Shown one piece after another: positions 3,001 to 50,084 of a stretch of 64,000 nt of DNA. The DNA is taken from the NCBI GenBank assembly GCA_964016885.1, contig OZ024742.1:259966001-260030000 (forward strand), in the 5' to 3' direction. Below the pieces are notes generated by a model. It worked only from the letters and a program-made list of their open reading frames with translations, did not search any database and was not told where the DNA came from. The position numbers and the translations under genes were made by a program. Within the stretch, counting starts at the first letter, position 1, and each line of letters begins with the position of its first letter. The stretch comes from Eledone cirrhosa. Lineage: Eukaryota.

Positions 3001-6000
3001 ACAACAATTACAGCAACAGTAGTAACAACAATTACAGCAACAGTAGCAACAACAATTACAGCAACAGTAGTAACAACAATTACAGCAACAGTAGTAACAA
3101 CAATTACAGCAACAGTAGTAACAACAATTACAGCAACAGTAGTAACAACAATTACAGCAGCAGTAGCAACAACAATTACAGCAACAGTAGCAACAACAAT
3201 TACAGCAACAGTAGCAACAACAATTACAGCAACAGTAGCAACAACAATTACAGCAACAGTAGTAACAACAATTACAGCAACAGTAGTAACAACAATTACA
3301 GCAACAGTAGCAACAACAATTACAGCAACAGTAGTAACAACAATTACAGCAACAGTAGTAACAACAATTACAGCAACAGTAGCAACAACAATTACAACAA
3401 CAGTAGCAACAACAATTACAGCAACAGTAGCAACAACAATTACAGCAACAGTAGCAACAACAATTACAGCAACAGTAGCAACAACAATTACAGCAACAGT
3501 AGTAACAACAATTACAGCAACAGTAGCAACAACAATTACAGCAACAGTAGCAACAACAATTACAGCAACAGTAGTAACAACAATTACAGCAACAGTAGCA
3601 ACAACAATTACAGCAACAGTAGTAACAACAATTACAGCAACAGTAGTAACAACAATTACAGCAACAGTAGCAACAACAATTACAGCAACAGTAGCAACAA
3701 CAATTACAGCATCAGTAGTAACAACAATTACAGCATCAGTAGTAACAACAATTACAGCAACAGTAGTAACAACAACAATTACAACAACAGTAGTAACAAC
3801 AATTACAGCAACAGTAGTAACAACAACAATTACAGCAACAGTAGTAACAACAATTACAGCAACAGTAGCAACAACAATTACAGCAACAGTAGTAACAACA
3901 ATTACAGCAACAGTAGTAACAACAATTACAGCAACAGTAGCAACAACAATTACAGCAACAGTAGCAACAACAATTACAGCATCAGTAGTAACAACAATTA
4001 CAGCATCAGTAGTAACAACAATTACAGCAACAGTAGTAACAACAACAATTACAACAACAGTAGAAACAACAATTACAGCAACAGTAGTAACAACAATTAC
4101 AGCAACAGTAGTAACAACAATTACAGCAACAGTAGCAACAACAATTACAGCAACAGTGACAACAACAATTACAGCAACAGTAGCAACAACAATTACAGCA
4201 ACAGTAGTAACAACAATTACAGCAACAGTAGCAACAACAATTACAGCAACAGTGACAACAACAATTACAGCAACAGTAGCAACAACAATTACAGCAACAG
4301 TAGTAACAACAATTACAGCAACAGTGACAACAACAATTACAGCAACAGTAGCAACAACAATTACAGCAACAGTAGTAACAACAATTACAGCAACAGTAGC
4401 AACAACAATTACAGCAACAGTAGTAACAACAATTACAGCAACAGTAGTAACAACAATTACAACAACAGTAGCAACAACAACAATTACAGCAACAGTAGCA
4501 ACAACAATTACAGCAACAGTAGTAACAACAATTACAGCAACAGTAGTAACAACAATTACAGCAACAGTAGCAACAACAATTACAGCAACAGTAGTAACAA
4601 CAATTACAGCAACAGTAGTAACAACAATTACAACAACAGTAGCAACAACAACAATTACAGCAACAGTAGCAACAACAATTACAGCAACAGTAGTAACAAC
4701 AATTACAGCAACAGTAGTAACAACAATTACAGCAACAGTAGCAACAACAATTACAGCAACAGTAGTAACAACAATTACAGCAACAGTAGTAACAACAATT
4801 ACAGCAACAGTAGTAACAACAATTACAGCAACAGTAGTAACAACAATTACAACAGTGACAACAACAATTACAGCAACAGTAGCAACAACAATTACAGCAA
4901 CAGTAGTAACAACAATTACAGCAACAGTAGTAACAACAATTACAGCAACAGTAGCAACAACAATTACAGCATCAGTAGTAACAACAATTACAGCAACAGT
5001 AGCAACAACAATTACAGCATCAGTAGTAACAACAATTACAGCAACAGTAGTAACAACAATTACAGCAACAGTAGCAACAACAATTACAGCAACAGTAGTA
5101 ACAACAATTACAGCAACAGTAGCAACAACAATTACAGCATCAGTAGTAACAACAATTACAGCAACAGTAGCAACAACAACAATTACAGCAACAGTAGTAA
5201 CAACAATTACAGCAACAGTAGCAACAACAATTACAGCATCAGTAGTAACAACAATTACAGCAACAGTAGTAACAACAATTACAGCAACAGTAGTAACAAC
5301 AATTACAGCAACAGTAGCAACAACAATTACAGCATCAGTAGTAACAACAATTACAACAACAGTAGCAACAACAACAATTACAGCAACAGTAGCAACAACA
5401 ATTACAGCAACAGTAGTAACAACAATTACAGCAACAGTAGCAACAACAATTACAGCAACAGTAGTAACAACAATTACAGCAACAGTAGTAACAACAATTA
5501 CAGCAACAGTAGCAACAACAATTACAGCAACAGTAGTAACAACAATTACAGCAACAGTAGCAACAACAATTACAGCAACAGTAGTAACAACAATTACAGC
5601 AACAGTAGTAACAACAATTACAGCAACAGTAGTAACAACAATTACAGCAACAGTAGTAACAACAATTACAGCAACAGTAGCAACAACAATTACAGCAACA
5701 GTAGCAACAACAATTACAGCAACAGTAGTAACAACAATTACAGCAACAGTAGTAACAACAATTACAACAGTGACAACAACAATTACAGCAACAGTAGCAA
5801 CAACAATTACAGCAACAGTAGTAACAACAATTACAGCAACAGTAGTAACAACAATTACAGCAACAGTAGCAACAACAATTACAGCATCAGTAGTAACAAC
5901 AATTACAGCAACAGTAGCAACAACAATTACAGCATCAGTAGTAACAACAATTACAGCAACAGTAGTAACAACAATTACAGCAACAGTAGCAACAACAATT

Positions 6001-9000
6001 ACAGCAACAGTAGTAACAACAATTACAGCAACAGTAGTAACAACAATTACAGCAACAGTAGCAACAACAATTACAGCAACAGTAGCAACAACAATTACAG
6101 CAACAGTAGCAACAACAATTACAACAGTGACAACAACAATTACAGCAACAGTAGAAACAACAATTACAGCAACAGTAGTAACAACAATTACAGCAACAGT
6201 AGTAACAACAATTACAGCAACAGTAGCAACAACAATTACAGCATCAGTAGTAACAACAATTACAGCAACAGTAGCAACAACAATTACAGCATCAGTAGTA
6301 ACAACAATTACAGCAACAGTAGTAACAACAATTACAGCAACAGTAGCAACAACAATTACAGCAACAGTAGTAACAACAATTACAGCAACAGTAGTAACAA
6401 CAATTACAGCAACAGTAGCAACAACAATTACAGCAACAGTAGTAACAACAATTACAGCAACAGTAGTAACAACAATTACAACAGTGACAACAACAATTAC
6501 AGCAACAGTAGCAACAACAATTACAGCAACAGTAGTAACAACAATTACAGCAACAGTAGCAACAACAATTACAGCATCAGTAGTAACAACAATTACAGCA
6601 ACAGTAGCAACAACAATTACAGCATCAGTAGTAACAACAATTACAGCAACAGTAGTAACAACAATTACAGCAACAGTAGCAACAACAATTACAGCAACAG
6701 TAGTAACAACAATTACAGCAACAGTAGCAACAACAATTACAGCAACAGTAGTAACAACAATTACAACAACAGTAGTAACAACAATTACAGCAACAGTAGC
6801 AACAACAATTACAGCAACAGTAGTAACAACAATTACAGCAACAGTAGCAACAACAATTACAGCAACAGTAGTAACAACAATTACAGCAACAGTAGTAACA
6901 ACAATTACAGCAACAGTAGCAACAACAATTACAACAACAGTAGCAACAACAATTACAACAACAGTAGAAACAACAATTACAGCAACAGTAGCAACAACAA
7001 TTACAACAACAGTAGCAACAACAATTACAACAACAGTAGTAACAACAATTACAGCAACAGTAGCAACAACAATTACAGCAACAGTAGCAACAACAATTAC
7101 AGCAACAGTAGTAACAACAATTACAGCAACAGTAGCAACAACAATTACAGCAACAGTAGTAACAACAATTACAACAACAGTAGTAACAACAATTACAGCA
7201 ACAGTAGTAACAACAATTACAGCAACAGTAGTAACAACAATTACAGCAACAGTAGCAACAACAATTACAGCAACAGTAGCAACAACAATTACAACAACAG
7301 TAGCAACAACAATTACAGCAACAGTAGTAACAACAATTACAGCAACAGTAGCAACAACAATTACAGCAACAGTAGCAACAACAATTACAGCAACAGTAGC
7401 AACAACAATTACAGCAACAGTAGTAACAACAATTACAGCAACAGTAGCAACAACAATTACAGCATCAGTAGTAACAACAATTACAGCAACAGTAGCAACA
7501 ACAATTACAGCAACAGTAGTAACAACAATTACAGCAACAGTAGTAACAACAATTACAACAACAGTAGTAACAACAATTACAGCAACAGTAGCAACAACAA
7601 TTACAGCAACAGTAGTAACAACAATTACAGCAACAGTAGCAACAACAATTACAGCAACAGTAGTAACAACAATTACAGCAACAGTAGCAACAACAATTAC
7701 AGCAACAGTAGTAACAACAATTACAGCAACAGTAGTAACAACAATTACAGCAACAGTAGTAACAACAATTACAGCAACAGTAGTAACAACAATTACAACA
7801 ACAGTAGCAACAACAATTACAACAACAGTAGTAACAACAATTACAGCAACAGTAGTAACAACAATTACAGCAACAGTAGTAACAACAATTACAGCAACAG
7901 TAGCAACAACAATTACAGCAACAGTAGTAACAACAATTACAGCAACAGTAGTAACAACAATTACAGCAACAGTAGTAACAACAATTACAGCAACAGTAGT
8001 AACAACAATTACAGCAACAGTAGCAACAACAATTACAGCAACAGTAGTAACAACAATTACAGCAGCAGTAGTAACAACAATTACAGCAACAGTAGCAACA
8101 ACAATTACAGCAACAGTAGCAACAACAACAATTACAGCAACAGTAGCAACAACAATAACAGCAACAGTAGTAACAACAATTACAGCAACAGTAGCAACAA
8201 CAATTACAACAACAGTAGTAACAACAATTACAGCATCAGTAGTAACAACAATTACAGCAACAGTAGTAACAACAATTACAGCAACAGTAGCAACAACAAT
8301 TACAGCAACAGTAGCAACAACAATTACAGCAACAGTAGTAACAACAATTACAGCAGCAGTAGTAACAACAATTACAGCAACAGTAGCAACAACAATTACA
8401 GCAACAGTAGTAACAACAATTACAGCAACAGTAGTAACAACAATTACAACAACAGTAGTAACAACAATTACAACAACAGTAGTAACAACAGTTACAGCAA
8501 CAGTAGTAACAACAATTACAGCAACAGTAGTAACAACAATTACAACAGTGACAACAACAATTACAGCAACAGTAGCAACAACAATTACAGCAACAGTAGT
8601 AACAACAATTACAGCAACAACAGCAACAACAATTACAGCAACAGTAGTAACAACAATTACAACAACAGTAGTAACAACAATTACAACAGTGACAACAACA
8701 ATTACAGCAACAGTAGTAACAACAATTACAGCAACAGTAGTAACAACAATTACAGCAACAGTAGTAACAACAATTACAGCAACAGTAGTAACAACAATTA
8801 CAACAGTGACAACAACAATTACAGCAACAGTAGCAACAACAATTACAGCAACAGTAGCAACAACAATTACAGCAACAGTAGCAACAACAATTACAGCAAC
8901 AGTAGCAACAACAATTACAGCAACAGTAGCAACAACAATTACAACAACAGTAGTAACAACAGTTACAGCAACAGTAGTAACAACAATTACAGCAACAGTA

Positions 9001-12000
9001 GTAACAACAATTACAGCAACAGTAGTAACAACAATTACAACAGTGACAACAACAATTACAACAACAGTAGCAACAACAATTACAACAACAGTAGTAACAA
9101 CAGTTACAGCAACAGTAGTAACAACAATTACAGCAACAGTAGTAACAACAATTACAGCAACAGTAGTAACAACAATTACAGCAACAGTAGCAACAACAAT
9201 TACAGCAACAGTAGTAACAACAATTACAGCAACAGTAGTAACAACAATTACAGCAACAGTAGTAACAACAATTACAGCAACAGTAGTAACAACAATTACA
9301 GCAACAACAGCAACAACAATTACAGCAACAGTAGTAACAACAATTACAACAACAGTAGTAACAACAATTACAACAGTGACAACAACAATTACAACAACAG
9401 TAGCAACAACAATTACAACAACAGTAGTAACAACAGTTACAGCAACAGTAGTAACAACAATTACAGCAACAGTAGTAACAACAATTACAACAGTGACAAC
9501 AACAATTACAGCAACAGTAGTAACAACAATTACAGCAACAGTAGTAACAACAATTACAACAGTGACAACAACAATTACAGCAACAGTAGCAACAACAATT
9601 ACAGCAACAGTAGCAACAACAATTACAGCAACAGTAGTAACAACAATTACAGCAACAGTAGTAACAACAATTACAACAACAGTAGCAACAACAATTACAA
9701 CAGTGACAACAACAATTACAGCAACAGTAGTAACAACAATTACAGCAACAGTAGTAACAACAATTACAACAGTGACAACAACAATTACAGCAACAGTAGC
9801 AACAACAATTACAGCAACAGTAGTAACAACAATTACAGCAACAGTAGTAACAACAATTACAGCAACAGTAGCAACAACAATTACAGCAACAGTAGTAACA
9901 ACAATTACAGCAACAGTAGTAACAACAATTACAACAACAGTAGCAACAACAATTACAACAGTGACAACAACAATTACAGCAACAGTAGTAACAACAATTA
10001 CAGCAACAGTAGTAACAACAATTACAACAGTGACAACAACAATTACAGCAACAGTAGCAACAACAATTACAGCAACAGTAGTAACAACAATTACAGCAAC
10101 AACAGCAACAACAATTACAGCAACAGTAGTAACAACAATTACAACAACAGTAGTAACAACAATTACAACAGTGACAACAACAATTACAGCAACAGTAGCA
10201 ACAACAATTACAGCAACAGTAGCAACAACAATTACAGCAACAGTAGTAACAACAATTACAGCAACAGTAGTAACAACAATTACAGCAACAGTAGTAACAA
10301 CAATTACAGCAACAGTAGTAACAACAATTACAGCAACAGTAGTAACAACAATTACAGCAACAGTAGCAACAACAATTACAGCAACAGTAGTAACAACAAT
10401 TACAGCAACAGTAGCAACAACAATTACAGCAACAGTAGCAACAACAATTACAGCAACAGTAGTAACAACAATTACAGCAACAGTAGCAACAACAATTACA
10501 GCAACAACAGCAACAACAATTACAGCAACAGTAGTAACAACAATTACAGCAACAGTAGTAACAACAACAATTACAGCAACAGTAGCAACAACAATTACAT
10601 CAACAGTAGCAACAACAATTACAAAAACATTGACAACAACAATTACAGCAACAGTAGCAACAACAATTACAGCAACAGTAGCAACAACAATTACAACAAC
10701 AGTAGCAACAACAACAATTACAACAACAGTAGCAACAACAACAATTACAGCAACAGTAGCAACAACAATTACAGCAACAGTAGCAACAACAATTACAGCA
10801 ACAGTAGCAACAACAATTACAGCAACAATAGTAACAACAATTACAGCAACAGTAGCAACAACAATTACAACAACAGTAGCAACAACAACAATTACAACAA
10901 CAGTAGCAACAACAACAATTACAGCAACAGTAACAACAACAATTACAGCAACAGTAGCAACAACAATTACAGCAACAGTAGCAACAACAATTACAACAAC
11001 AGTAGCAACAACAACAATTACAACAACAGTGGCAACAACAATTACAGCAACAGTAGCAACAACAACAATTACAACAACAGTAGTAACAACAATTACAGCA
11101 ACAGTAGTAACAACAATTACAGCAACAGTAACAACGACATTTACAGCAACAGTAGCAACAACAATTACAACAACAGTAGCAACAACAACAATTACAGCAA
11201 CAGTAGCAACAACAATTACAGCAACAGTAGCAACAACAATTACAGCAACAGTAGCAACAACAACAATTACAACAACAGTAGAAACAACAATTACAGCAAC
11301 AGTAGCAACAACAACAATTACAACAACAGTAGTAACAACAATTACAACAACAGTAGCAACAACAATTACAACAACAGTAGTAACAACAACAATTACAACA
11401 ACAGTAGCAACAACAACAATTACAACAACAGTAGTAACAACAATTACAACAACAGTAGTAACAACAATTACAGCAACAGTAGCAACAACAATTACAACAA
11501 CAGTAGTAACAACAATTACAGCAACAGTAGCAACAACAACAATTACAGCAACAGTAGTAACAACAATTACAACAACAGTAGCAACAACAATTACAGCAAC
11601 AGTAGTAACAACAATTACAGCAACAGTAGTAACAACAATTACAGCAACAGTAGCAACAACAATTACAGCAACAGTAGCAACAACAATTACAGCAACAGTA
11701 GTAACAACAATTACAGCAACAGTAGTAACAACAATTACAGCAACAGTAGCAACAACAATTACAGCAACAGTAGTAACAACAATTACAGCAACAGTAGTAA
11801 CAACAATTACAACAACAGTAGCAACAACAATTACAGCAACAGTAGTAACAACAATTACAGCAACAGTAGTAACAACAATTACAGCAACAGTAGCAACAAC
11901 AATTACAGCAACAGTAGCAACAACAATTACAGCAACAGTAGTAACAACAATTACAGCAACAGTAGCAACAACAATTACAGCAACAGTAGTAACAACAATT

Positions 12001-13240
12001 ACAGCAACAGTAGCAACAACAATTACAGCAACAGTAGTAACAACAATTACAGCAACAGTAGTAACAACAATTACAGCAACAGTAGCAACAACAATTACAG
12101 CAACAGTAGCAACAACAATTACAGCAACAGTAGTAACAACAATTACAGCAACAGTAGCAACAACAATTACAGCAACAGTAGCAACAACAATTACAGCAAC
12201 AGTAGTAACAACAATTACAGCAACAGTAGCAACAACAATTACAGCAACAGTAGCAACAACAATTACAGCAACAGTAGTAACAACAATTACAGCAACAGTA
12301 GCAACAACAATTACAGCAACAGTAGCAACAACAATTACAGCAACAGTAGCAACAACAATTACAGCAACAGTAGCAACAACAATTACAGCAACAGTAGTAA
12401 CAACAATTACAGCAACAGTAGCAACAACAATTACAGCAACAGTAGCAACAACAATTACAGCAACAGTAGTAACAACAATTACAGCAACAGTAGCAACAAC
12501 AATTACAGCAACAGTAGCAACAACAATTACAGCAACAGTAGCAACAACAATTACAGCAACAGTAGCAACAACAATTACAGCAACAGTAGTAACAACAATT
12601 ACAGCAACAGTAGCAACAACAATTACAGCAACAGTAGCAACAACAATTACAGCAACAGTAGTAACAACAATTACAGCAACAGTAGTAACAACAATTACAG
12701 CAACAGTAGTAACAACAATTACAGCAACAGTAGTAACAACAATTACAGCAACAGTAGCAACAACAATTACAGCAACAGTAGCAACAACAATTACAGCAAC
12801 AGTAGTAACAACAATTACAGCAACAGTAGTAACAACAATTACAGCAACAGTAGTAACAACAATTACAGCAACAGTAGTAACAACAATTACAGCAACAGTA
12901 GTAACAACAATTACAGCAACAGTAGCAACAACAATTACAGCAACAGTAGCAACAACAATTACAGCAACAGTAGTAACAACAATTACAGCAACAGTAGTAA
13001 CAACAATTACAGCAACAGTAGTAACAACAATTACAGCAACAGTAGTAACAACAATTACAGCAACAGTAGTAACAACAATTACAGCAACAGTAGTAACAAC
13101 AATTACAGCAACAGTAGTAACAACAATTACAGCAACAGTAGTAACAACAATTACAGCAACAGTAGCAACAACAATTACAGCAACAGTAGCAACAACAACA
13201 ATTACAGCAACAGTAGCAACAACAACAATTACAGCAACAG
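1..13240. repeat. 24-bp satellite (ACAACAATTACAGCAACAGTAG[C/T]A)n, runs off the left edge
   Basis: Continuous tandem unit with a GCA/GTA dimorphism and +/-ACA indels; decays into unique-like sequence at about 13240-13450. Confidence 0.97.
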
Positions 13241-18362: not shown

Positions 18363-18444
<82 letters not shown>

Positions 18445-18506
18445 ATATATATATATATATAAAGAGAAATAGGATTTCGCCTCAAGCAGAGCTTTATACA
18501 ATATGT

Positions 18507-18695
18507 ATAAATATTTCGTATCTCCAAAGAAATACGGTTTTAGCAAGCCATAGCTATGCAAATACCGGGGGGCTAACGCCCTCTGGTGATGACCCCCTTG
18601 CTTCTGCTGGACATCACCAGAGGGCGTTAGTCCCCCGGTATTTGCATAGCTATGGCTTGCTAAAACCGTATTTCTTTGGAGATACGAAATATTTA

Positions 18696-18696
<1 letters not shown>
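18507..18696. repeat. Long inverted repeat (85-bp arms, 20-nt spacer) inside (TA)n
   Basis: 18507-18591 is the reverse complement of 18612-18696 with about one mismatch. Confidence 0.93.
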
Positions 18697-18760
<64 letters not shown>

Positions 18761-19563
18761 CATATATATATAGGTGTGTGTAGGTTTATGTCGAGTATAT
18801 GTGTGTGTATCTGTGTATCTGTGGGAGTATGCGTATATATATGAAGCGTTGAAGTGGTTGTTGTTGAAGCGGATGATAAACACGACAAATACAATACTTC
18901 AGCAAAAAGGAAAAAGAATATGATTACTTCGAATCATAAAAGTATAAAGTTTAATGGTAGCACTCGCAAATGAATACAGTGTTTGTAAAAAAGCTTATGC
19001 GTTGTCTACATGAAGAGGCAGATAATTCTGTGTGTGGTTGAAGTGCTGATGCAAGAATTGCTGTCGAGCCTTTGTCGACAGGGCCGAAGTTTTTTGCTAA
19101 GTGCTACATCTCGCTTCTTGCCTGAGCAATTCAAAATGATGCTTCTCTCCCGAGGAACAAAAGTCGAATTATCTAAAGAAAAACATATTTCATTTAACCT
19201 CAAGCTAGCCAGCCAGCCTCTCCAGACTACAAGCACCAACCGAGAGAAATAGCAGCCAGATGTCATTCAGGAATCAGTATGTACGAAGATATTTCGCTAC
19301 ATTAGTTCCCCATCCAGATCCATGCGGGAGCAGCGATCAACAACAAAAGAAGTAACAAAATGGCAGAACACGACTTTAAAAAAATTGTTGGGGATAGAAA
19401 TTTATGGTAGCTTTAGTTATATGGAGCCATGAGTCGCTCTACATATATTGAAAGAAAAACAAAGTGCATTCCGCAGTGAGTTGGGAATATGTGACTAGAT
19501 TGATGTAAAGCTATCGGCACTGTATGCAATTGCAAGTAGCTTATGGCTACCCATTCGTTTAAA

Positions 19564-20520: not shown

Positions 20521-20712
20521 AGTCTTGGGTTCAATCGGGTGGTAACCGCAGTAAGTGAGGTACTCAATATATCAGTAGAGTGTAAACATCAAATTTAATA
20601 TAGAAATGGTTTCTACAGGACTTGAACTGTTTCATTGGAAGTAAATCATCAGTCTTTCCTGGTGATTTCCATTGAATGAAACAGTTCTAGTCCTGTAGAA
20701 GCCATTTCTATA
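20521..20712 (-). mobile_element. Family 1 pLTR fold-back island, diverged arms, degenerate hammerhead cores
   Basis: Same ggtaacc.cagtaagt.aggtactcaata block and gaaacagttc.agtcctgtagaa; the + core is mutated to CTGGTGA. Confidence 0.7.
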
Positions 20713-20721
20713 ATAAGTTTG

Positions 20722-20825
<104 letters not shown>

Positions 20826-23231: not shown

Positions 23232-23539
<308 letters not shown>

Positions 23540-23605
23540 TCTATCGATTTCTTTTTTGTCGAACCACTAAGTTATGGACATAAACACATACACAAACATA
23601 AACAC

Positions 23606-23644
<39 letters not shown>

Positions 23645-23647
<3 letters not shown>

Positions 23648-23825
23648 GTGTTTATGTTTGTGTTTGTGTTTATGTCCATAACTTAGTGGTTCGACAAAAA
23701 AGAAATCGATAGAATAAGTACCAGTCTAAAGAAATAAGTACTGGGGTCGATATTATCGATTAAATCAAGTCGTTGCCCAGTATAGATACAGTCTAATGAC
23801 TGAAAACATATGAAAGAAGAAAAGA
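23645..23825 (+). mobile_element. SINE family C, with an inverted partial copy at 23538-23609 across a (TA)n centre
   Basis: cataacttagtggttcgacaaaaaagaaatcgatagaataagtac...ctggggtcgat...aatgactgaaa; the left arm is its reverse complement. Confidence 0.75.
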
Positions 23826-26875: not shown

Positions 26876-27027
26876 CGAAGGAGGTGTGGTAAGGAACCAT
26901 ATGAACCATAACGCACGAGAGTACTCAATACTTAGGGTAGTAGAGTGGGTAATAGGAAAAAGTTTAACCTCGACGGCAGAGCTCAAGCCGTCGAAACGGC
27001 TTGAGCTCTGTCGTCGGGGTTAAACTC

Positions 27028-27030
<3 letters not shown>
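26875..27030 (-). mobile_element. pLTR-like island with 31-bp-arm hairpin (26961-27026) containing a hammerhead 3' half; partial copy at 22995-23046
   Basis: GAAA-CGGC ttgagctct G[C/T]CG-TC; shares GTACTCAATAC with family 1. Confidence 0.6.
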
Positions 27031-27069
<39 letters not shown>

Positions 27070-29045: not shown

Positions 29046-29293
29046 AACTATCTGGTTGTGGAACCAACCAACCAACCAGAAATTTATAAGTTTGTAGATT
29101 TGTAAATTTATAAATTTATAAATATATAATAAATTGAAGTGAAAGCACTGGTGCGTGTGTTTCTTATTGGCAACATGACCCTCCCAAAGTATAACAATAT
29201 CGGTTTCAACACACGATTTCAGATAAAGAATCTTGCTAAACAAATTCAGAAACGAAATATATTTATATATATATATATTTATATATATATATT

Positions 29294-29345
<52 letters not shown>

Positions 29346-29575
29346 TATATATATATATATTTATATATTAGTTTAGCGAGGTTTTTTATATGAAATCGTG
29401 TGTCGAAACAGATATTTTTGACCGTCGGTCAGTCAATGGCAACATTGAGGACCGAGTAAGTTAGATCGCAGATATAAAAGACAGCGAGAAGCGAAAACCA
29501 ACCAAACAGTGAGTGTGTTCTGTTATTAATTCTGGCAATATTACGCAAATATGACCCTCCCCAAGTATAACAATA
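29042..29575 (+). mobile_element. Penelope-like pLTR fragment, same family as 36190-37700
   Basis: Near-identical to the reverse complement of 36190-36385 (caacatgaccctcccaaagtataacaatatcggtttcaacacacg). Confidence 0.75.
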
Positions 29576-30315
29576 TATTTATATTTATATATATATATTT
29601 ATATATATATATTTATATATATATATATTTAGTTATGTAGCAGAGATTAATAGTTATGTAAAAAACAACATAAGGCAATTATTCCATTTACCAGTGGTTT
29701 CTTAAAAGCAAAAGATTTTGCTTTCAATCCTCAGAATGAAAAAATCCCGGTCTGTTTATTGAATTTGGATTTTAAAAACAAAAATGCAATCTATATGAAA
29801 GTGAGGCTGGAGAAAGAAGAAGGAAAGGAAAAATAAAATAAAACTACACATGCAAACGCACACACAAACACGCACACACAAACACGCACACACACACACA
29901 CACAAAAGCATACATACATACACACATATATACACACATATATGTGTATATAAATACACACATACATATACACATATATACATACGCACATAAATATCAA
30001 CACATCCATACATACACATACATATATACAACCACACACACATATATACACACATACATACGTATAGAAACATAAATATATATATATATACATATATATA
30101 TATGTACAAGCATACACATACACAAACATAGCCATACACACAACATATACATACATACATACATGCACACAATCATACATATATACAGACGTACATACAT
30201 ACACACACTCTCACACATAAATATACATATATAAATACATAAACACATACATACACATACACAAATACATGCACAAACACGCACACACGCGTATACAAAT
30301 ATACACACACATATG

Positions 30316-30423
<108 letters not shown>

Positions 30424-30551
30424 ATGTAGGAGGTGAGTTTTATTGTAGTACAATAAAGCAATGCAGATATCGGATAAGAAGCACTCTACAATTTGTAGGA
30501 CTGGAGTATACATAATATATAAGATCAAAAGATGGTTAAATGAGTTCCATG

Positions 30552-30622
30552 TATTTTATTATGCGCATTTCAAAAACAAATATCATCATGCAATAATATT
30601 TGTGTTTTCATCAGATAAAATA
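30552..30622 (-). ncRNA. Type I hammerhead ribozyme motif (family 2)
   Basis: Reverse complement reads TATTTTAT-CTGATGA-long stem II-GAAA-TGCGCA-TA-ATAAAATA. Confidence 0.85.
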
Positions 30623-30711
30623 GGAAGACATGATATGATGGTTAAAAACACTTGTGGATAGTGCAGTTTTAAATCAACATATGTGTTTTTAACCTTCATA
30701 TCATGTCTTCC

Positions 30712-30782
30712 TATTTTATCTGATGAAAACACAAATGTTATTGCATGATGATATTTCTTTTTGAAATGCGCATAATAAAATA
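30712..30782 (+). ncRNA. Type I hammerhead ribozyme motif (family 2)
   Basis: Stem I TATTTTAT/ATAAAATA, core CTGATGA...GAAA, palindromic stem III ATGCGCAT, AUA triplet. Confidence 0.85.
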
Positions 30783-30891
30783 CATGGAACTCATTTAACC
30801 ATCTTTTGATCTTATATATTATATATATATGTATATGTAGGAGGTGAGTTTTATTGTAGTACAATAAAGCAATGCAGATATCGGATAAGAA

Positions 30892-30972
<81 letters not shown>

Positions 30973-31099
30973 AAAGTTCTATTTAAATTGTTGGGATACA
31001 ACAAGCAAATATTTTTATAACTGATATAAAGCACTCAACAAATAATTGGAGTAAAAATACGATATTAACAAATGGAAACTATATTTATAAAACCATATT

Positions 31100-31164
31100 T
31101 ATTTCATTATACATATTTCAAGGACACCAAGTTAAATTATGGTGTGCTTTCATCAGATAAAATA
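31100..31164 (-). ncRNA. Type I hammerhead ribozyme motif (family 2-related) in palindrome 31061-31259
   Basis: Reverse complement: TATTTTAT-CTGATGA-aagcACACCA..TGGTGTcctt-GAAA-TATGTA-TA-ATGAAATA. Confidence 0.8.
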
Positions 31165-31260
31165 TAATATAGAGCAGTTTTATAAATAAATATTGACCTT
31201 GAAATATGTATAATGAAATAAATATGGTTTTATAAATATAGTTTCCATTTGTTAATATCC

Positions 31261-31330
<70 letters not shown>

Positions 31331-33710: not shown

Positions 33711-33771
33711 CATATATATATATACATATATATAATATATAAGGTCAAAAGATGGTTAAATGAGTTCCATG

Positions 33772-33842
33772 TATTTTATTATGCGCATTTCAAAAACAAA
33801 TATCATCATGCAATAACATTTGTGTTTTCATCAGATAAAATA
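33772..33842 (-). ncRNA. Type I hammerhead ribozyme motif (family 2)
   Basis: Same core and stems as 30552-30622. Confidence 0.85.
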
Positions 33843-33932
33843 GGAAGACATGATATGATGGTTAAAAACACTTGTGGGATAGTGCAGTTTTAAATCAACA
33901 TATGTGTTTTTAACCTTCATATCATGTCTTCC

Positions 33933-34003
33933 TATTTTATCTGATGAAAACACAAATGTTATTGCATGATGATATTTGTTTTTGAAATGCGCATAATAAA
34001 ATA
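33933..34003 (+). ncRNA. Type I hammerhead ribozyme motif (family 2)
   Basis: TATTTTAT CTGATGA aaacacaaatgttattgcatgatgatatttgttttt GAAA TGCGCA TA ATAAAATA. Confidence 0.87.
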
Positions 34004-34160
34004 CATGGAACTCATTTAACCATCTTTTAATATTATATATTATGTATACTCCAGTCCTACAAACTGTAGAGTGCTTCTTATCCGTTATCTGCATTGCTTT
34101 ATTGTACTACAATAAAACTCACCTCCTACATATACATATATATATATATGTATATATGTA

Positions 34161-36855: not shown

Positions 36856-36968
36856 CCAACCAATCGGAAATTTATAAATTCCTAAATTTATAAATTTATT
36901 ATAATAAATTGAAGTGAAAGCAACTGGTGCGTGTGTTTCTTATTGGCAACATGACCCTCCCAAAGTAT

Positions 36969-37049
<81 letters not shown>

Positions 37050-37050
37050 G

Positions 37051-37080
<30 letters not shown>

Positions 37081-37082
<2 letters not shown>

Positions 37083-37714
37083 TTGTTATACTTTGGGAGG
37101 GTCATGCTGCCAATAAAAACACACCCTCCTGTTGGTTTTCACTTCAATTTATTAAAAGTTTCCGGTTGGTTCGATAACCGGAAAGTTGTTTATATATTGT
37201 CAAAGCTCTTTCGTCACACATTCTGTGACCTCCTCGGTGACTAGGTTTTTATTTTGTGTCCCTCCTTTGTCCTACACTATCTTGTGTCCTACACTATCTT
37301 GTTTTTATGTGTTGTGTTTAGTGTGCTTAGTTTGCGCATGCGTTACATCCGAGTGTGTGTGTGTGTTTATTTATCTATGTGTTTATTCATTTGTCACTAG
37401 TTGGTTGTTTGTTCTATCTGTGTGTGTCTGATTTCTTTTGTTAGTTTGTTTTTTGTGTGTGTCTGTATGTCTTCATGTTGTCCTTAATTACTAGTTGTGA
37501 TGTTGCTATTCCACTCATGTTTTCTGTTTAGTTTTGGTTGCAGTTCGTTTATATTTGTCGTCTCTGTGATTTGTCTGAGCATTGCATCTTTTCTGAGTGT
37601 GGGTATAATTTTTATCTCTATGTTCTCTAATGTGCCCCTATGTTCTATTTTGGCATGTTGCCAAAATAGAACATAGGGGGACATAGGGCACATTAGAGAA
37701 CATAAAGATAAAAA
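37081..37714 (-). mobile_element. Second 5'-truncated Penelope-like copy (endonuclease C-terminus plus pLTR)
   Basis: ORF 37484-37693 (RQITETTNINELQPKLNRKHEW); paralogous to 36240-36850. Confidence 0.8.
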
Positions 37715-38148
37715 ATGTGTGGGTCTAGTGTAGGAGAGCTATGCTAGTGTGGGGATTGTGTGGGGTTGTGTGGAACTGGGTCGGGCTGGGTCGAGCTGTG
37801 TGTCGCAGTGTGGGAGATGTGTTTGTGTATGACACAGTGTGGGTTAGTGTGCCACTGTGGTTCGCAATGTGTGGCTGTGTGGATAGGTATCGTTGTGTGG
37901 AGCTAGGGTGGTAGCTATATCAGTATGTGGCACTGTGTGATTGGTGTGTTAATGTGTGTGTTGGTGTACACTTATGTGTGTGGAACTGTGTTGAAATGTC
38001 TCTGTGTTGTTGGTGTAGGTGTTAATGTTTGTATGTTAGTGTATATGTATGTAGGACTTTTATTAGTGTGGATGTATATATATGTAGGACTTGTGCTGCT
38101 GCTGGTGTGCTAATGTGTGTATATACGTGTGTGAGGTGGTAGTGGGTG

Positions 38149-39350
38149 GATATGCCATAGAAATACAGTCAACAGAGGTGGTGGCGGTACTAATTTTGGT
38201 GGTGGTGGTGCTGGTGATGTTGATGGTGGTGTTGGTGATGTTGATGTTGGTGTTGGTGATGTTGATAATATGTAGATATGCCATAGAAATTCAGCCAATG
38301 TTGTTGATGGTGGTGGTGTTAGTGGTGGTGGTGTTAGTGGTGGTGGTGGTGGTGGTGATATGTAGATATGCCATAGAAATACAGCCAATCTTGGTGGTGT
38401 TGGTGGTGTTAGTGATGTTGGTGATGCTTGTGATGTTGGTCGTGTTGGTGATGCTGGTGATGTTGGTGATGGTGTTGATGATATTGATGGTGGTAATGAT
38501 GATGATGTTGATGGCATGTATATATGCCATAGAAATGCAGCCAATATTAATGGCGGTGGGGGTGATGCTGGCGTTGGTGGTGGTGGTGTTGGCAATGTTG
38601 ATGGTGTTGATGGTATGTAGATATGCCATAAAAATACAGTCAATGTTAGTGGTGGTGGTGGTGGTGTTATTGGTGATGTTGATGGTGGTGTTGATGGTGG
38701 TGGTGGTGGTGGTATTGATGGTGGTGTTATTGGTGATGGTGGTCTTGATGATGGTGGTGTTGGTGGTGGTGGTGGTGGTGTTGATATGTAGATATCCCAT
38801 AGAAATACAGCCTAAGTTAGTGGTGGTGGTATTGATGGTGGTGTTGGTGGTGGCGTTAGTGGTGTCATTGGTGATGGTGGTGTTGATGATGGGCGTTGTG
38901 GTGGTGTTGGTGGTGGTGATGTTGCTGATGATATGTATTCTATAGAAATACAGTCATTGTTAGATGTGGTGGTAGTGTTGATGATGGTGGTGGCGGTGGT
39001 TTTAGTGGTGGTCGTGTTGAGGTGGTGATGGCGGTGGTGTTAGCGGTGTTATTGTTGATGGTGGTGTTAGTGGTGTTATTGGTGATGTTGATGATGGTGG
39101 TGTTGGTGTTGGTGGTGTTATTGGTGATGTTGATGTTGATGCTGGTGGTGGTGGTGGTGGTGGTGGTGTTGGTGGTGGCGTTGGTGTTGTTATTGGTGAT
39201 GGTGATGTTGATGATGATGGTGGTGGTTGTGTTGGTGGTGGCTGTGGTGTTGGTGGTGTTGGTGGTGGCTGTGATGTCGGTGGTGTTGGTGGTGTTGGTG
39301 GTGGCTGTGATGTCGGTGATATGTAGATATGCCATAGAAATACAGCCTAT
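38149..39350. repeat. Interspaced repeat: about 30-bp conserved motif separated by variable (GTG/GAT/GTT)n tracts
   Basis: ATATGTAGATATGCCATAGAAATACAGCCAAT near 38149, 38268, 38358, 38516, 38615, 38784, 38931, 39319. Confidence 0.85.
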
Positions 39351-39454
39351 GTAAAACGCAGTTTATAGTTCTCTCAATATGTAAATTTAACTGAACAGAT
39401 TCAACATAAAAGGAATAATAATGGCTAATCAGACATTGTAGGGAGGGGGGAACC

Positions 39455-42400
39455 ACTGATATAGTGGGGGAAGCAATAGTGAGATAGTGTGAGGGGGGAT
39501 ACTGATATAGTGTGGGAGGATACTGATATAGTGTGGGGGACTACTGATATAGTGTGGGGGATTACTGATATAGTGTGGGGGGATACTGATATAGTGTGGG
39601 GGACTACTGATATAGTGTGGGGGGATACTGATATAGTGTGGGGGACTACTGATATAGTGTGGGAGTACTACTGAGATAGAGGGGGGAGTACTGAGATAGT
39701 GTGGGGGACTACTGATATAGTGTGGGGGGATACTGATATAGTGTGGGGGACTACTGATATAGTGTGGGGGACTACTGATATAGTGTGGGGGACTACTGAT
39801 ATAGTGTTGGGGGGATACTGATATAGTGTGGGGGACTACTGATATAGTGTTGGGGACTACTGATATAGTGTGGGGGACTACTGATATAGTGTTGGGGACT
39901 ACTGATATAGTGTGGGGGACTACTGATATAGTGTGGGAGTACTACTGATAGTGTGGGGGACTACTGATATAGTGTGGGGGACTACTGATATAGTGTTGGG
40001 GACTACTGATATAGTGTTGGGGACTACTGATATAGTGTGGGGGACTACTGATATAGTGTGGGGGGATACTGATATAGTGTTGGGGACTACTGATATAGTG
40101 TGGGGGGATACTGATATAGTGTGGGGGACTACTGATATAGTGTGGGAGTACTACTGAGATAGAGGGGGGAGTACTGAGATAGTGTGGGGGACTACTGATA
40201 TAGTGTGGGGGGATACTGATATAGTGTGGGGGACTACTGATATAGTGTGGGGGACTACTGATATAGTGTGGGGGACTACTGATATAGTGTTGGGGGATAC
40301 TGATATAGTGTGGGGGACTACTGATATAGTGTTGGGGACTACTGATATAGTGTGGGGGACTACTGATATAGTGTTGGGGACTACTGATATAGTGTGGGGG
40401 GATACTGATATAGTGTGGGGGACTACTGATATAGTGTGGGAGTACTACTGAGATAGAGGGGGGAGTACTGAGATAGTGTGGGGGACTACTGATATAGTGA
40501 GGGGGACTACTGATATAGTGTGGGGGACTACTGATATAGTGTGGGGGACTACTGATATAGTGTGGGGGGATACTGATATAGTGTGGGGGACTACTGATAT
40601 AGTGTGGGGGATTACTGATATAGTGTGGGGGGATACTGATATAGAGGGGGGAGTACTGAGATAGTGTGGGGGGATACTGATATAGTGTGGGGGACTACTG
40701 ATATAGTGTGGGGGACTACTGATATAGTGTGGGAGTACTACTGAGATAGAGGGGGGAGTACTGATATAGTGTGGGGGACTACTGATATAGTGTGGGAGTA
40801 CTACTGAGATAGAGGGGGGAGTACTGAGATAGTGTGGGGGACTACTGATATAGTGGGGCAGTACTACTGAGATAGTGTGGGGGACTACTGATATAGTGAG
40901 GGGGACTACTGATATAGTGAGGGGGACTACTGATATAGTGTGGGGGACTACTGATATAGTGTGGGGGGATACTGATATAGTGTGGGGGACTACTGATATA
41001 GTGTGGGGGATTACTGATATAGTGTGGGGGGATACTGATATAGTGGGGGGGACTACTGAGATAGAGGGGGGAGTACTGAGATAGTGTGGGGGACTACTGA
41101 TATAGTGTGGGAGTACTACTGAGATAGAGGGGGGAGTACTGAGATAGTGTGGGGGACTACTGATATAGTGTGGGGGACTACTGATATAGTGAGGGGGACT
41201 ACTGATATAGTGAGGGGGACTACTGATATAGTCTGAGGGGATACTGATATAGTCTGGGGGGATACTGATATAGTGGGGGGACTACTGATATAGTGGAAGG
41301 GGACTACTGATATAGTGGGGCAGTACTACTGAAATAGTGAGGGGGACTACTGATATAGTGAGGGGGATTACTGAAATAGTGAGGGGGACTACTGATATAG
41401 TCTGAGGGGATACTGATATAGTGTGGGGGACTACTGATATAGTGAGGGGGACTACTGATATAGTGGGGCAGTACTACTGAAATAGTGAGGGGGACTACTG
41501 ATATAGTGTGGGGGACTACTGATATAGTGAGGGGGACTACTGATATAGTGAGGGGGACTACTGATGTAGTCTGAGGGGATACTGATATAGTGGGGTGGAC
41601 TACTGATATAGTGTGGGGGGATACTGATATAGTGGGGGGGACTGCTGAGATAGTGGGGGGACTACTGATATAGTGGGAGGGGATACTGATATAGTGGGGT
41701 GGACTACTGATATAGTGGAAGGGGACTACTGATATAGTGGGAGGGGATACTGATATAGTGGGGGGACTACTGATATAGTGGAAGGGGACTACTGATATAG
41801 TGGGAGGGGATACTGAAATAGTGAGGGGGACTACTGATATAGTCTGAGGGGATACTGATATAGTGTGGGGGACTACTGATATAGTGAGGGGGACTACTGA
41901 TATAGTGAGGGGGACTACTGATATAGTGGGAGGGGATACTGATATAGTGGGGTGGACTACTGATATAGTGGGGGGGGACTACTGATATAGTGAGGGGGAC
42001 TACTGAGATAGTGAGGGGGAATACTGAGATAGTGGGGGGGAATACTGAGGTAGTGGGGGGGACTACTGATATAGTGGGGGGGACTACTGATATAGTGAGG
42101 GGGACTACTGAGATAGTGAGGGGGAATACTGAGGTAGTGGGGGGACTACTGATATAGTGGGGGGGGACTACTGATATAGTGGGGCAGTACTACTGAGATA
42201 GTGTGGGGGACTACTGATATAGTGAGGGGGACTACTGAGATAGTGAGGGGGAATACTGAGATAGTGGGGGGGACTACTGATATAGTGGGGGGGACTACTG
42301 AGATAGTGAGGGGGAATACTGAGATAGTGGGGGGGACTACTGATATAGTGGGGCAGTACTACTGATATAGTGGGAGGGGATACTGATATAGTGTGGGCGA

Positions 42401-42895
42401 CTACTGATATAGTGAGGGGGACTACTGATATAGTGGGGGGGACTACTGAGATAGAGGGGGGACTACTGAGATAGTGAGGGGGACTACTGATATAGTGAGG
42501 GGGAATACTGAGATAGTGGGGGGGACTACTGATATAGTGAGGGGGACTACTGATATAGTGGGGGGGGACTACTGATATAGTGGGGCAGTACTACTGAGAT
42601 AGTGTGGGGGACTACTGATATAGTGAGGGGGACTACTGAGATAGTGGGGGGACTACTGATATAGTGAGGGGGAATACTGAGATAGTGGGGGGACTACTGA
42701 TATAGTGGGGGAGTACTACTGAGATAGAGGGGGAATACTGAGATAGTGGGGGGACTACTGATATAGTGGGGGAGTACTACTGAGATAGAGGGGGGAGTAC
42801 TGAGATAGTGTGGGGGAATACGGAGATAGTGGGGGGAGTACTACTGAGATAGAGGGGGAGTACTACTGAGATAGAGGGGGAGTACTGTGATAGTG
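39455..42895. repeat. G-rich 21-bp minisatellite (TGGGGGACTACTGATATAGTG)n
   Basis: About 3.4 kb tandem array with position-dependent variants. Confidence 0.95.
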
Positions 42896-43664
42896 GGGAG
42901 GGAGTGAGATAGCAATGGGGGTGGATAGAGGGACTGAGAGAGGGGGGTAGAGTGAATGAAAAGGGAGATAGAGGGGCAGGGGGGGTAGAGTGAAGGGTAG
43001 AGTGTGTGGTAGCGGGTGTAATTGGACTGAGAGGGAAATAGAAAGAGGAGGGGATAGAGAGAGGAGGTAGAAAGCCAGAGAGGAGGGGTAGTGTAGAAGG
43101 GATAAAGATACTAAGAGAGGTGTAGAAACTGAGAAAGGGGTAGAGGGACTGGGAAAGAGGGGGTAGACAGAAAGACTGAGGTAGAGACAAACAGACAGAT
43201 AGGGGGGAAACAAAGACACAGACAGACAGGTAGATACAAAGAAAGACATAAAAGGTAGAGAAAGAGAGAAAGAGAGAGAGACAGACAGACAGACACAAAA
43301 GAATGAAATTGAGGGAAAGAGAGTGAGTGAGAGAAGAAGGAAGAGAGATAGAGTGTGTGAGGAAAGGAGGGATAGAGAAAGAAAACATGTAAGGGAAAGA
43401 GAGAGAGTAAGAGAGAGAGTGTGTGAGGGAAAGAGAGAGAGTGTGTGAGGGAAAGAGAGAGAGTGTGTGAGGGAAAGAGAGAGAGTGTGTGAGGGAAAGA
43501 GAGAAAGTGTGTGAGGGAAAGAGAGTGTGAGAGAGTCTTTTATTTGTGAAATCTATGAGAATAACAGAATAGAATTTGAAAATGCTGATAGTGCAAAGCA
43601 AAACATACCTATTTAATGACATTCTCTCATTGTTGTTCATGTAACCAATAAAAGAAATTACTAT

Positions 43665-43859
43665 TATCATCATCATCACCATCATTACAGTATACCAACA
43701 TTGTTATCATCATTGCCATTATCACTATCATCATCATCATACCACCATCTTTATCATCATTGCCATTATCACCATCATCACAATCATCATCATCATCATC
43801 ATCGTCATCATCATTATCATCATGCCACCATTTTATCATCACCATCATTATCATTGTGG

Positions 43860-43891
<32 letters not shown>

Positions 43892-44052
43892 CCATTATCA
43901 TCATCAGCATCATTATCATCACCATCATCATTGTTACTATCACCACCACCATCATCATTTTCACTATTATCATCTTCATTGTCATTACCATCACTATCAT
44001 CATCATGATCAGCATAACTACCAACATCATTATCATCATTATTAGTATCATT
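43665..44052. repeat. (CAT)n-derived low-complexity tract
   Basis: Degenerate CAT/CAC/TAT triplets. Confidence 0.9.
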
Positions 44053-44587: not shown

Positions 44588-44642
44588 ACTGCCTGAAGAG
44601 GTCACAGCCAATGATGGCTGTCACCGAAATATATATAGCAGT
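44588..44642 (+). ncRNA. Type I hammerhead ribozyme motif (family 4)
   Basis: ACTGC-CTGAAGA-GGTcACAGCCA atga TGGCTGTcACC-GAAA-TATATA-TA-GCAGT, followed by AATAAA and (TA)n. Confidence 0.88.
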
Positions 44643-49240: not shown

Positions 49241-49415
49241 CCCAGGTTCAATCGGGGGTAACCACAGTAAGTAAGGTACTCAATACATAGCAGAGTATAA
49301 ATATTTAATATAGAAATGGCTTCTACAGGACTTGAACTGTTTCATTCGAAGGAAATCATCCTGATGATTTCCTTCAAATGAAACAGTTCTAGTCCTATAG
49401 AAGCCATTTCTATAT
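49241..49415 (-). mobile_element. Third family 1 pLTR fold-back island
   Basis: Palindrome 49308-49415 centred at catc|ct|gatg, in (TA)n. Confidence 0.75.
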
Positions 49416-50084
49416 TTATATATATATATATATATTATATATATATGGGAGAGAGAGAGGGGGGGGGCAAGAGACGGACAGATGGAGAGATATGGGTACC
49501 CAACTTGTCTCTTTTCTTCTGTCTCTAGGGTTTATATACCACACTTGTTATCAAATGTTCTTCCATGATAGAAGATTTTATATATACTTTAACCATATGG
49601 GTACCATGTTTCTAATAAAATACACTGCCTATGATTTTCAAATATTTTTGAAAATAATCAAGAATTAGGAAGGATTTAGTAGTATAACTAACTTTCTCGT
49701 TATTGAGCTGGTGGTTGGAATATGACAAAGGTTCTTACATAATGGAATGTTTTTAGATAAATATAAATATTTGTAGAAGCAAGGGTGGTTTCAGGTCTTT
49801 TGGTATAATTTGGGTTAATACTCCTGTTGCTGATGATGATGAAGAGGATGATTGTATTAGCAAGGTACAGTTGAGAAGTGAAGTGAAGATAGAGGGAAGG
49901 TAACCTGTGTGTCAAGGGACATAACTATGACAGAACAGAATATAAAGAAGCTTCTATGTAATTATTCAACTTGCTAGAAATAGCAGCTAAATTTCATTTA
50001 AATCCCACTCCTTATTATTTTTAAAATATATCTAAAATTACATTGAATAATGTAGTATGTATGCTGGTATACATTCACACATAC

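Follow-up and report, generated by a model that had tools for sequence, protein, structure and literature searches.

A hammerhead-bearing palindrome in Eledone cirrhosa read as a Hydra-like Penelope fold-back insertion

In the window, the whole 64-kb stretch of Eledone cirrhosa DNA analysed here, the palindrome consists of two copies, placed head to head, of an end repeat (pLTR) that carries a hammerhead and belongs to a very abundant Penelope-like retrotransposon. Its assignment to the fold-back insertions of a Hydra-like Penelope element is almost beyond doubt. The palindrome is probably a short insertion of the protein-coding element, composed of two cDNAs that were primed separately and then fused head to head, and it likely arises afresh with each jump instead of being a mobile element in its own right. 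By itself, the window locus is ordinary transposon debris. The feature is of a known kind, and nearly all of its mechanistic interest comes from the junction record of the family.

The palindrome and its hammerhead motifs

The two arms (30514-30651 and 30683-30820) measure 138 nt each, with 3 mismatches, and enclose a 31-nt centre, as in the preliminary description. The arm positions given there hold, but the extent is too short: the 87-bp tail of the left arm, a one-sided feature that is a hallmark of Penelope elements, was overlooked. The presumed spacer is of the correct length and is not a separate segment, being the pLTR's own first 31 nt (Table 1). The window holds the repeat only, and a tblastn search of its 64 kb returns no coding part of the Penelope-like element.

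Table 1 Positions of the palindrome, its neighbours and similar features in the window
Feature	Position	Strand	Details
Tail-bearing arm: whole pLTR (unit 1-169) and tail (170-256) of the Penelope-like element	30427-30682	-	96% identity to L103 positions 1-260
One-sided tail, 87 bp	30427-30513	-	in full-length copies, continues into 5' leader and ORF
Type I hammerhead motif	30552-30622	-	predicted cut between 30560 and 30559
First 31 nt of the pLTR (former 'spacer')	30652-30682	-	30682 is the fixed stop point
Tail-less inverted arm, pLTR ~32-169, with (TA)n at its end	30683-30820	+	
Type I hammerhead motif, stem II weakened	30712-30782	+	predicted cut after 30774
Detached 60-bp tail fragment amid TA tracts	30835-30894	-	100% identity to L103 positions 199-258
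(TA)n target tract, left side	30322-30424	.	from sequence
(TA)n target tract, right side	30821-30834 and 30895-30970	.	from sequence
Second fold-back, same family and same centre junction	33734-34130	+	3.2 kb from the first
Tail of second fold-back, right arm	34042-34130		
Hammerheads of second fold-back	33772-33842 and 33933-34003	- and +	
Partial fold-back, sister family	31057-31263	-	own hammerhead 31100-31164, stem III ATATGTAT
Further hammerhead-like motif	44588-44642	+	stem II strong (z -3.05); TA tract downstream
Further hammerhead-like motif	29682-29741	-	
Eight further fold-backs	18418-18772, 20588-20723, 23537-23716, 26952-27035, 29193-29419, 36899-37157, 37609-37714, 49296-49428		

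The hammerhead parts lie on both strands where they were first placed: an 8-bp stem I, CTGATGA, GAAA and the AUA site, combined with a 36-nt stem II region and the stem III ATGCGCAT. The motifs are thus present as claimed, and the term 'intact' applies better to the minus arm than to the plus arm, where a substitution weakens stem II (-4.8 versus -9.1 kcal/mol). A descriptor demanding a stem I of at least 7 bp and a palindromic stem III matches five times in the window, against zero matches in 30 of 30 Markov-resampled controls. The Rfam search that had been suggested as a check gives no match at the gathering score in the window. Between 30400 and 34200 hammerhead families are absent from the 101 weak Rfam matches, and the best weak matches across the palindrome are miRNA families. 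Folded singly, the motifs do not stand out from shuffled sequences (z +0.59 and -0.87). Stem III forms no monomer hairpin, and its self-duplex with a second copy is predicted at -10.5 kcal/mol; the part of PMC4209133 that treats dimers describes hammerheads in the arrangement predicted here for the window stem III. The suggested rod-like RNA is physically sound as a prediction: a transcript of the whole palindrome would fold as a rod of -209.8 kcal/mol in which the motif is masked, and its action as a switch is hypothetical. The preliminary description was right to relate the motifs to pLTR hammerheads of Penelope-like elements that have a palindromic stem III. In sister families found in the fetched loci, the core is kept, with the palindrome (ATGCGCAT, ATATATAT, ATATGTAT) and a stem II base swapped. 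This combination argues that the hammerhead motif was under selection in the parent elements.

The two fold-backs of this family in the window have in common a rare junction (10 loci) and an arm-specific A/T difference, with their tails on opposite sides. On account of the common junction and difference, they are probably not independent insertions; for the opposite tail sides, local duplication with arm recombination is a guess. Motifs resembling the sister-family hammerhead (stem III ATATGTAT) also occur in other fetched loci. Several of the eight further fold-backs adjoin TA tracts, similar sequences lie near many fetched loci, and the eight may be fold-back products of other families. The regions 1-13000 and 38000-44000 of the window are strongly skewed in composition (AT skew ~0.55; GC skew up to 0.7) and are probably long tandem arrays.

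The parent element

In the 3.0-Gb genome, the palindrome query yields 432 candidates, 40 of which were scored. Single-arm copies traced upstream lead into a 1-kb 3' UTR and then into a coding region. Of 17 long loci, 4 have an open frame flanked by the end repeat, with 816 codons in L103, 821 in L109, 775 in L111 and 808 in L114. The order in L103 is pLTR, tail, leader, ATG, ORF, 3' UTR and pLTR, extending over 3,869 bp from pLTR start to pLTR end. Direct pLTR tandems are found in L111, L114 and L121, and inverted pairs elsewhere. Contigs from two other organisms contain the repeat and the tail, one of them continuing into the same 3' UTR.

The parent frames carry YRDD. The closest PDB folds of the protein model (pLDDT 79.6) are telomerases (Z 14.7, rmsd 5.2, 289 aligned), on a par with other RTs, and the matches in a viral fold library are generic RdRps. 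The C-terminal domain is barely tested by the wide fold search, since only polymerase-type folds are listed in its output; the single-sequence endonuclease model has a pLDDT of 35.6. Against Pfam GIY-YIG (PF01541), the C-terminal 148 aa score E 0.0015 and 19.2 bits (curated cut-off 22.6), and the residues IY...YFG, R, E and N align with relatives, a weak but positive indication of a GIY-YIG domain. Pfam finds no RT family in the whole protein. A profile search of PDB sequences gives a single match, judged to be chance.

The protein has 18 relatives at 32-39% identity. Its Hydra-type motifs are SDKT (DKT for DKG), CNCRIKNKC (the CxCx5C linker), CNLC (CxxC) and CLH (CxH), corresponding to the Hydra-clade traits given in section 11 of PMC8557442, namely DKT, CxCx5C, and CxxC and CxH around a conserved E and N. 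The endonuclease is without a CCHH motif, as in the Hydra clade. By these motifs, the parent appears Hydra-like. A Neptune-like identity was dropped because the linker and DKT motifs suit Hydra better. Residues 580-656 of the L109 ORF form an Asn/Ser/Thr-rich, low-confidence insert between the RT thumb and the endonuclease; it is absent in five aligned relatives and recalls the N-rich inserts in the relevant part of PMC3846280.

The traits of Penelope-like (EN+) elements found here comprise a single ORF, a telomerase-related RT, GIY-YIG, and direct or inverted pLTRs with an optional tail; the type I hammerhead in the pLTR is recognised by the motif descriptor only, Rfam being negative. In the sections on the Hydra clade (Craig et al. 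2021, PMC8557442; Hydra-1_Obim, Penelope-13_HM), the same C-terminal GIY-YIG behind a telomerase-like RT, the same DKT, CxCx5C, CxxC and CxH motifs, (TA)n targets, a sense hammerhead in the pLTR and an inverted 5'-truncated copy at the 5' end are described. File S2 of that work places a hammerhead on both strands of Penelope-13_HM. The Eledone parent differs from this clade in several respects. The RWK column near the N terminus reads RWT or RWI in the parent protein and RWK or RWE in 5 aligned relatives. The element is 3.9 kb long with its 1-kb 3' UTR, whereas Hydra-clade elements tend to stay below 3 kb. Its hammerhead, with a 36-nt stem II and an 8-nt palindromic stem III, is unlike the motifs of the 27 Hydra-clade families in File S2. 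Finally, its copies exceed 13,000, and many of them are nothing more than pLTR-only palindromes.

Junctions, arm ends and the RNA 5' end

Exact matches over the 3.0-Gb genome, with a reversed control of 0 for each pattern, number 15,714 for the hammerhead 3' half, 13,207 for the tail end and 12,419 for the pLTR start; the pLTR start joined to the native 3' UTR, counted with a slightly different pattern from that behind the 12,419, gives 5,315. The commonest junction is a perfect palindrome at the pLTR start (842 loci), with the self-complementary CATATG at base 1 as its centre. The window-type junction occurs at 10 loci, 2 of them inside the window; the reversed control is again 0 for both junction patterns. 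In the sequence listed for the best 21 loci, the centres differ and the 87-bp tail lies on one arm only, left or right.

The locus had been proposed to be a propagating non-coding fold-back unit. This proposal finds no support, as the junctions vary, the window type accounts for 10 loci against 842, and the repeat flanks frames of ~800 codons. Variable inversion junctions, which the preliminary description had set against a propagating unit, are what the genome holds, though they are not random one-offs and pile up at the first pLTR base. From the junction counts, the fixed palindrome is not the spreading unit. That a 307-bp palindrome spreads as such, as a fold-back or MITE-like unit or as a rod-like ribozyme RNA switch, is extremely improbable: it would suit the motif on both arms, the predicted rod and the junction common to the two window copies, but its junction is found at so few of the 12,419 pLTR starts, the centres range from a few bases up to kilobases of coding body, and the tail changes sides between copies. 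In place of the fixed length, conserved interior and symmetric TIRs of a MITE or fold-back DNA transposon, variable centres and a one-sided tail are observed.

A census of 98 consecutive tail copies on contig C1, drawn from the first 100 matches listed there with the last two omitted, contains 28 copies that stop at unit 1-3, 29 that enter the 3' UTR and 41 with scattered stops. The tail is followed by a TA-rich microsatellite in 95 of the 98 and by element body in 3, and the parent element thus appears to insert into (TA)n, as the Hydra clade does. An inverted pLTR arm adjoins 42 of the 98 tails, with 32 such arms starting at unit 1-3 and 32 ending at 175. The outer ends of 258 arms (loci L041-L208) fall at unit 160-180 in 109 cases, at 250-255 in 148 and elsewhere in 1. 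These two fixed arm ends are the pLTR end and the tail end.

Palindromes within long (TA)n tracts are difficult to assemble, and none of the compared contigs covers the entire stretch, both of which would accord with an assembly artefact from long-read strand-switch chimeras. The asymmetric tail, the fixed arm ends, the inserted junction bases and the between-arm substitutions are, however, unexpected from read fold-backs, and the layout is that of the PLE insertions shown in parts of PMC8557442 and PMC3846280, leaving such an artefact with a negligible probability.

At least 4,746 of the 12,419 arms break off precisely where the pLTR begins, with a non-native base just before base 1 (G in 2,329, T in 1,758 and A in 659). 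At other stops, G is present in 4 of 41 by hand count. The context of base 1 is TTC-A-TA, which is taken here to be initiator-like (Inr consensus). An extra G is described as a copied-cap mark for L1 insertions in the corresponding part of PMC11702581. In a class-enriched sample read by hand, ~17 of 33 extra-G cases could be microhomology or the other arm's native base, so a capped RNA start at pLTR base 1 is considered likely. Position 30682 of the window would correspond to this RNA 5' end. A recurrent 'CAC' preceding base 1 was discarded as selection bias because those loci had been chosen by a query containing that junction.

In L024, L022, L033 and L055, the pLTR start is fused directly to unrelated sequence. 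Just upstream of base 1 lies RT-like coding sequence in L024; in L033 and L055, a different repeat ends there in inverted orientation. These fusions suggest jumps between templates at the end of the RNA.

A few loci hinted at a pile-up of starts at the hammerhead cut, which two counts reject. Genome-wide, a non-native base precedes the cut product in 221 cases and the control position in 169, and the inner arm starts at the cut in 5 of 68 against 3.3 expected. There is thus no surplus of copies that begin at the cut, such as would be expected if the template were a circular or unit-length retrozyme RNA cut at the hammerhead.

Origin of the inverted arms

Of 15 tail-only arms, 12 adjoin an inverted arm that lacks the tail. 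A single cDNA copied back on itself cannot generate such a pair, from which two cDNAs are inferred. In the proposed mechanism, the parent's endonuclease would nick both strands within the (TA)n tract, and each nick would prime reverse transcription at an internal RNA site, one at the tail end and the other at the pLTR end. When priming takes place in the 5' pLTR, both cDNAs would run off the capped RNA 5' end after a maximum of 175 and 255 nt, and their 3' ends would be joined via short microhomology (ATAT) or end joining. The hammerhead would be a passenger in such insertions. Cleavage is predicted for the dimer only, in tandem transcripts of the sense strand; in a read-through transcript, the antisense arm would mask the motif. 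The in vitro sections of PMC11167929 describe a PLE protein that cleaves and extends both target strands, with the tail between two RT start sites and hammerhead cleavage dispensable for insertion. The fold-back copies fit this scheme.

The same retrotransposon could instead form its inverted arm through self-priming (snap-back) of a single cDNA or an antisense template, as discussed in part of PMC3846280. The 842 perfect palindromes centred on CATATG are compatible with either model. The likeness of the arms within an insertion speaks for both models as well: in 25 palindromes they differ by a mean of 2.6 edits, compared with 10.8 between insertions. Such similarity could also stem from gene conversion after insertion, and in only 7 of the 25 is the partner arm strictly closer than any other, since young subfamilies have identical arms. 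The first window copy, whose tail arm extends further 5', fits snap-back as well. Against it, the 12 tail-only arms are joined to an inverted arm with which they have no sequence in common, and in 57 classified pairs the tail-less arm extends further 5' in 33 and the tail arm in 3, a ratio biased by tail arms extending far into the body not having been followed. Snap-back is on this evidence unlikely, and two separately primed cDNAs are preferred.

The source RNA is a further point. One subfamily is skewed to short copies (17:4 vs 74:74, Fisher p 0.009, arms not independent), which counts against the protein-coding element as the source and is expected of short-copy sources. A non-autonomous mini-element could supply a 255-nt pLTR-plus-tail RNA from short copies, mobilised in trans, with the palindrome remade at each jump. 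A short copy includes the inferred start site and both priming sites, the 28 tail copies stopping at unit 1-3 in the census have this length, and short head-to-tail hammerhead units exist in L014. However, ten of ten diagnostic alleles are also present in 3' UTR-linked arms (169 arms), so full-length sources suffice. According to PMC11167929, the protein moreover requires RNA that lies downstream of the start sites in its own element, a region that may be missing from short copies, and a palindromic locus would yield double-stranded RNA. The mini-element, which is compatible with the two-cDNA explanation and not exclusive of it, is regarded as doubtful.

Several known systems share parts of the preferred two-cDNA mechanism. 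In the text on PAc (Poseidon from Anolis; Frangieh et al. 2024, PMC11167929), the same two RT start sites bound the tail, and both-strand cleavage and extension and AT-rich targets are the same. PAc belongs to a different clade, the 87-bp tail is that of the Eledone element, and inverted arms and RNA 5'-end run-off are unaddressed in the portion of the PAc text considered. The Adineta vaga Penelope, in the pertinent part of Arkhipova et al. 2013 (PMC3846280), has the same head-to-head pLTRs, palindromic junctions, optional tail and Inr-like pLTR sequence; it differs in having few copies and in its antisense self-priming explanation, which is unfitting for the tail-only arms here. LINE-1 twin priming, as outlined in sections of PMC11702581, involves the same second RT from the other target strand, junction microhomology and extra G. 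The L1 arms copy adjacent, nearly non-overlapping RNA parts, whereas the arms here usually share up to 175 nt, or kilobases, of the sequence and have a constant second start site.

At L014 (1501-2742), the palindrome is followed by three head-to-tail hammerhead and tail units of ~231 bp, which is retrozyme-like. Such a short array is present in 1 of 21 loci. Non-LTR retrozymes were reportedly described by Cervera and de la Pena in 2020. In Li et al. 2026 (10.64898/2026.07.22.740005), they resemble the present copies as short non-coding type I hammerhead units related to PLE pLTRs. Retrozymes are organised there as head-to-tail tandem arrays, in contrast to the dispersed head-to-head pairs here, which have an autonomous parent with the same repeat.

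In the literature covered, which included few subscription papers, no junction counts, double priming or 5' run-off are reported for PLEs, nor is PLE twin priming. The origin of inverted and tailed Penelope-like structures is called unresolved in the section of PMC8557442 that deals with them. The family matters for this reason, as it offers >13,000 young copies with countable junctions. Open-frame copies exist, which makes a biochemical test of the model feasible. As an in vivo record, the copies indicate that hammerhead-cut RNA hardly ever serves as a template, in agreement with the in vitro PAc result.

Tentatively, and with low confidence, a non-autonomous 255-nt mini-retroelement may be envisaged that never copies its palindrome and makes a new one with each jump: a dimeric RT would prime at two fixed internal sites from both strands of a nicked (TA)n tract, and both cDNAs would run off a capped 5' end and be joined. 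If this were true, the hammerhead hairpin loci, which number in the thousands, would form a permanent reservoir of double-stranded RNA directed at the parent, and the genomic record would settle how Penelope inverted repeats form. In conclusion, palindromes of this kind are liable to be misfiled as MITEs or microRNA hairpins, and their junctions favour two independently primed cDNAs over self-priming and point to a capped start at pLTR base 1.
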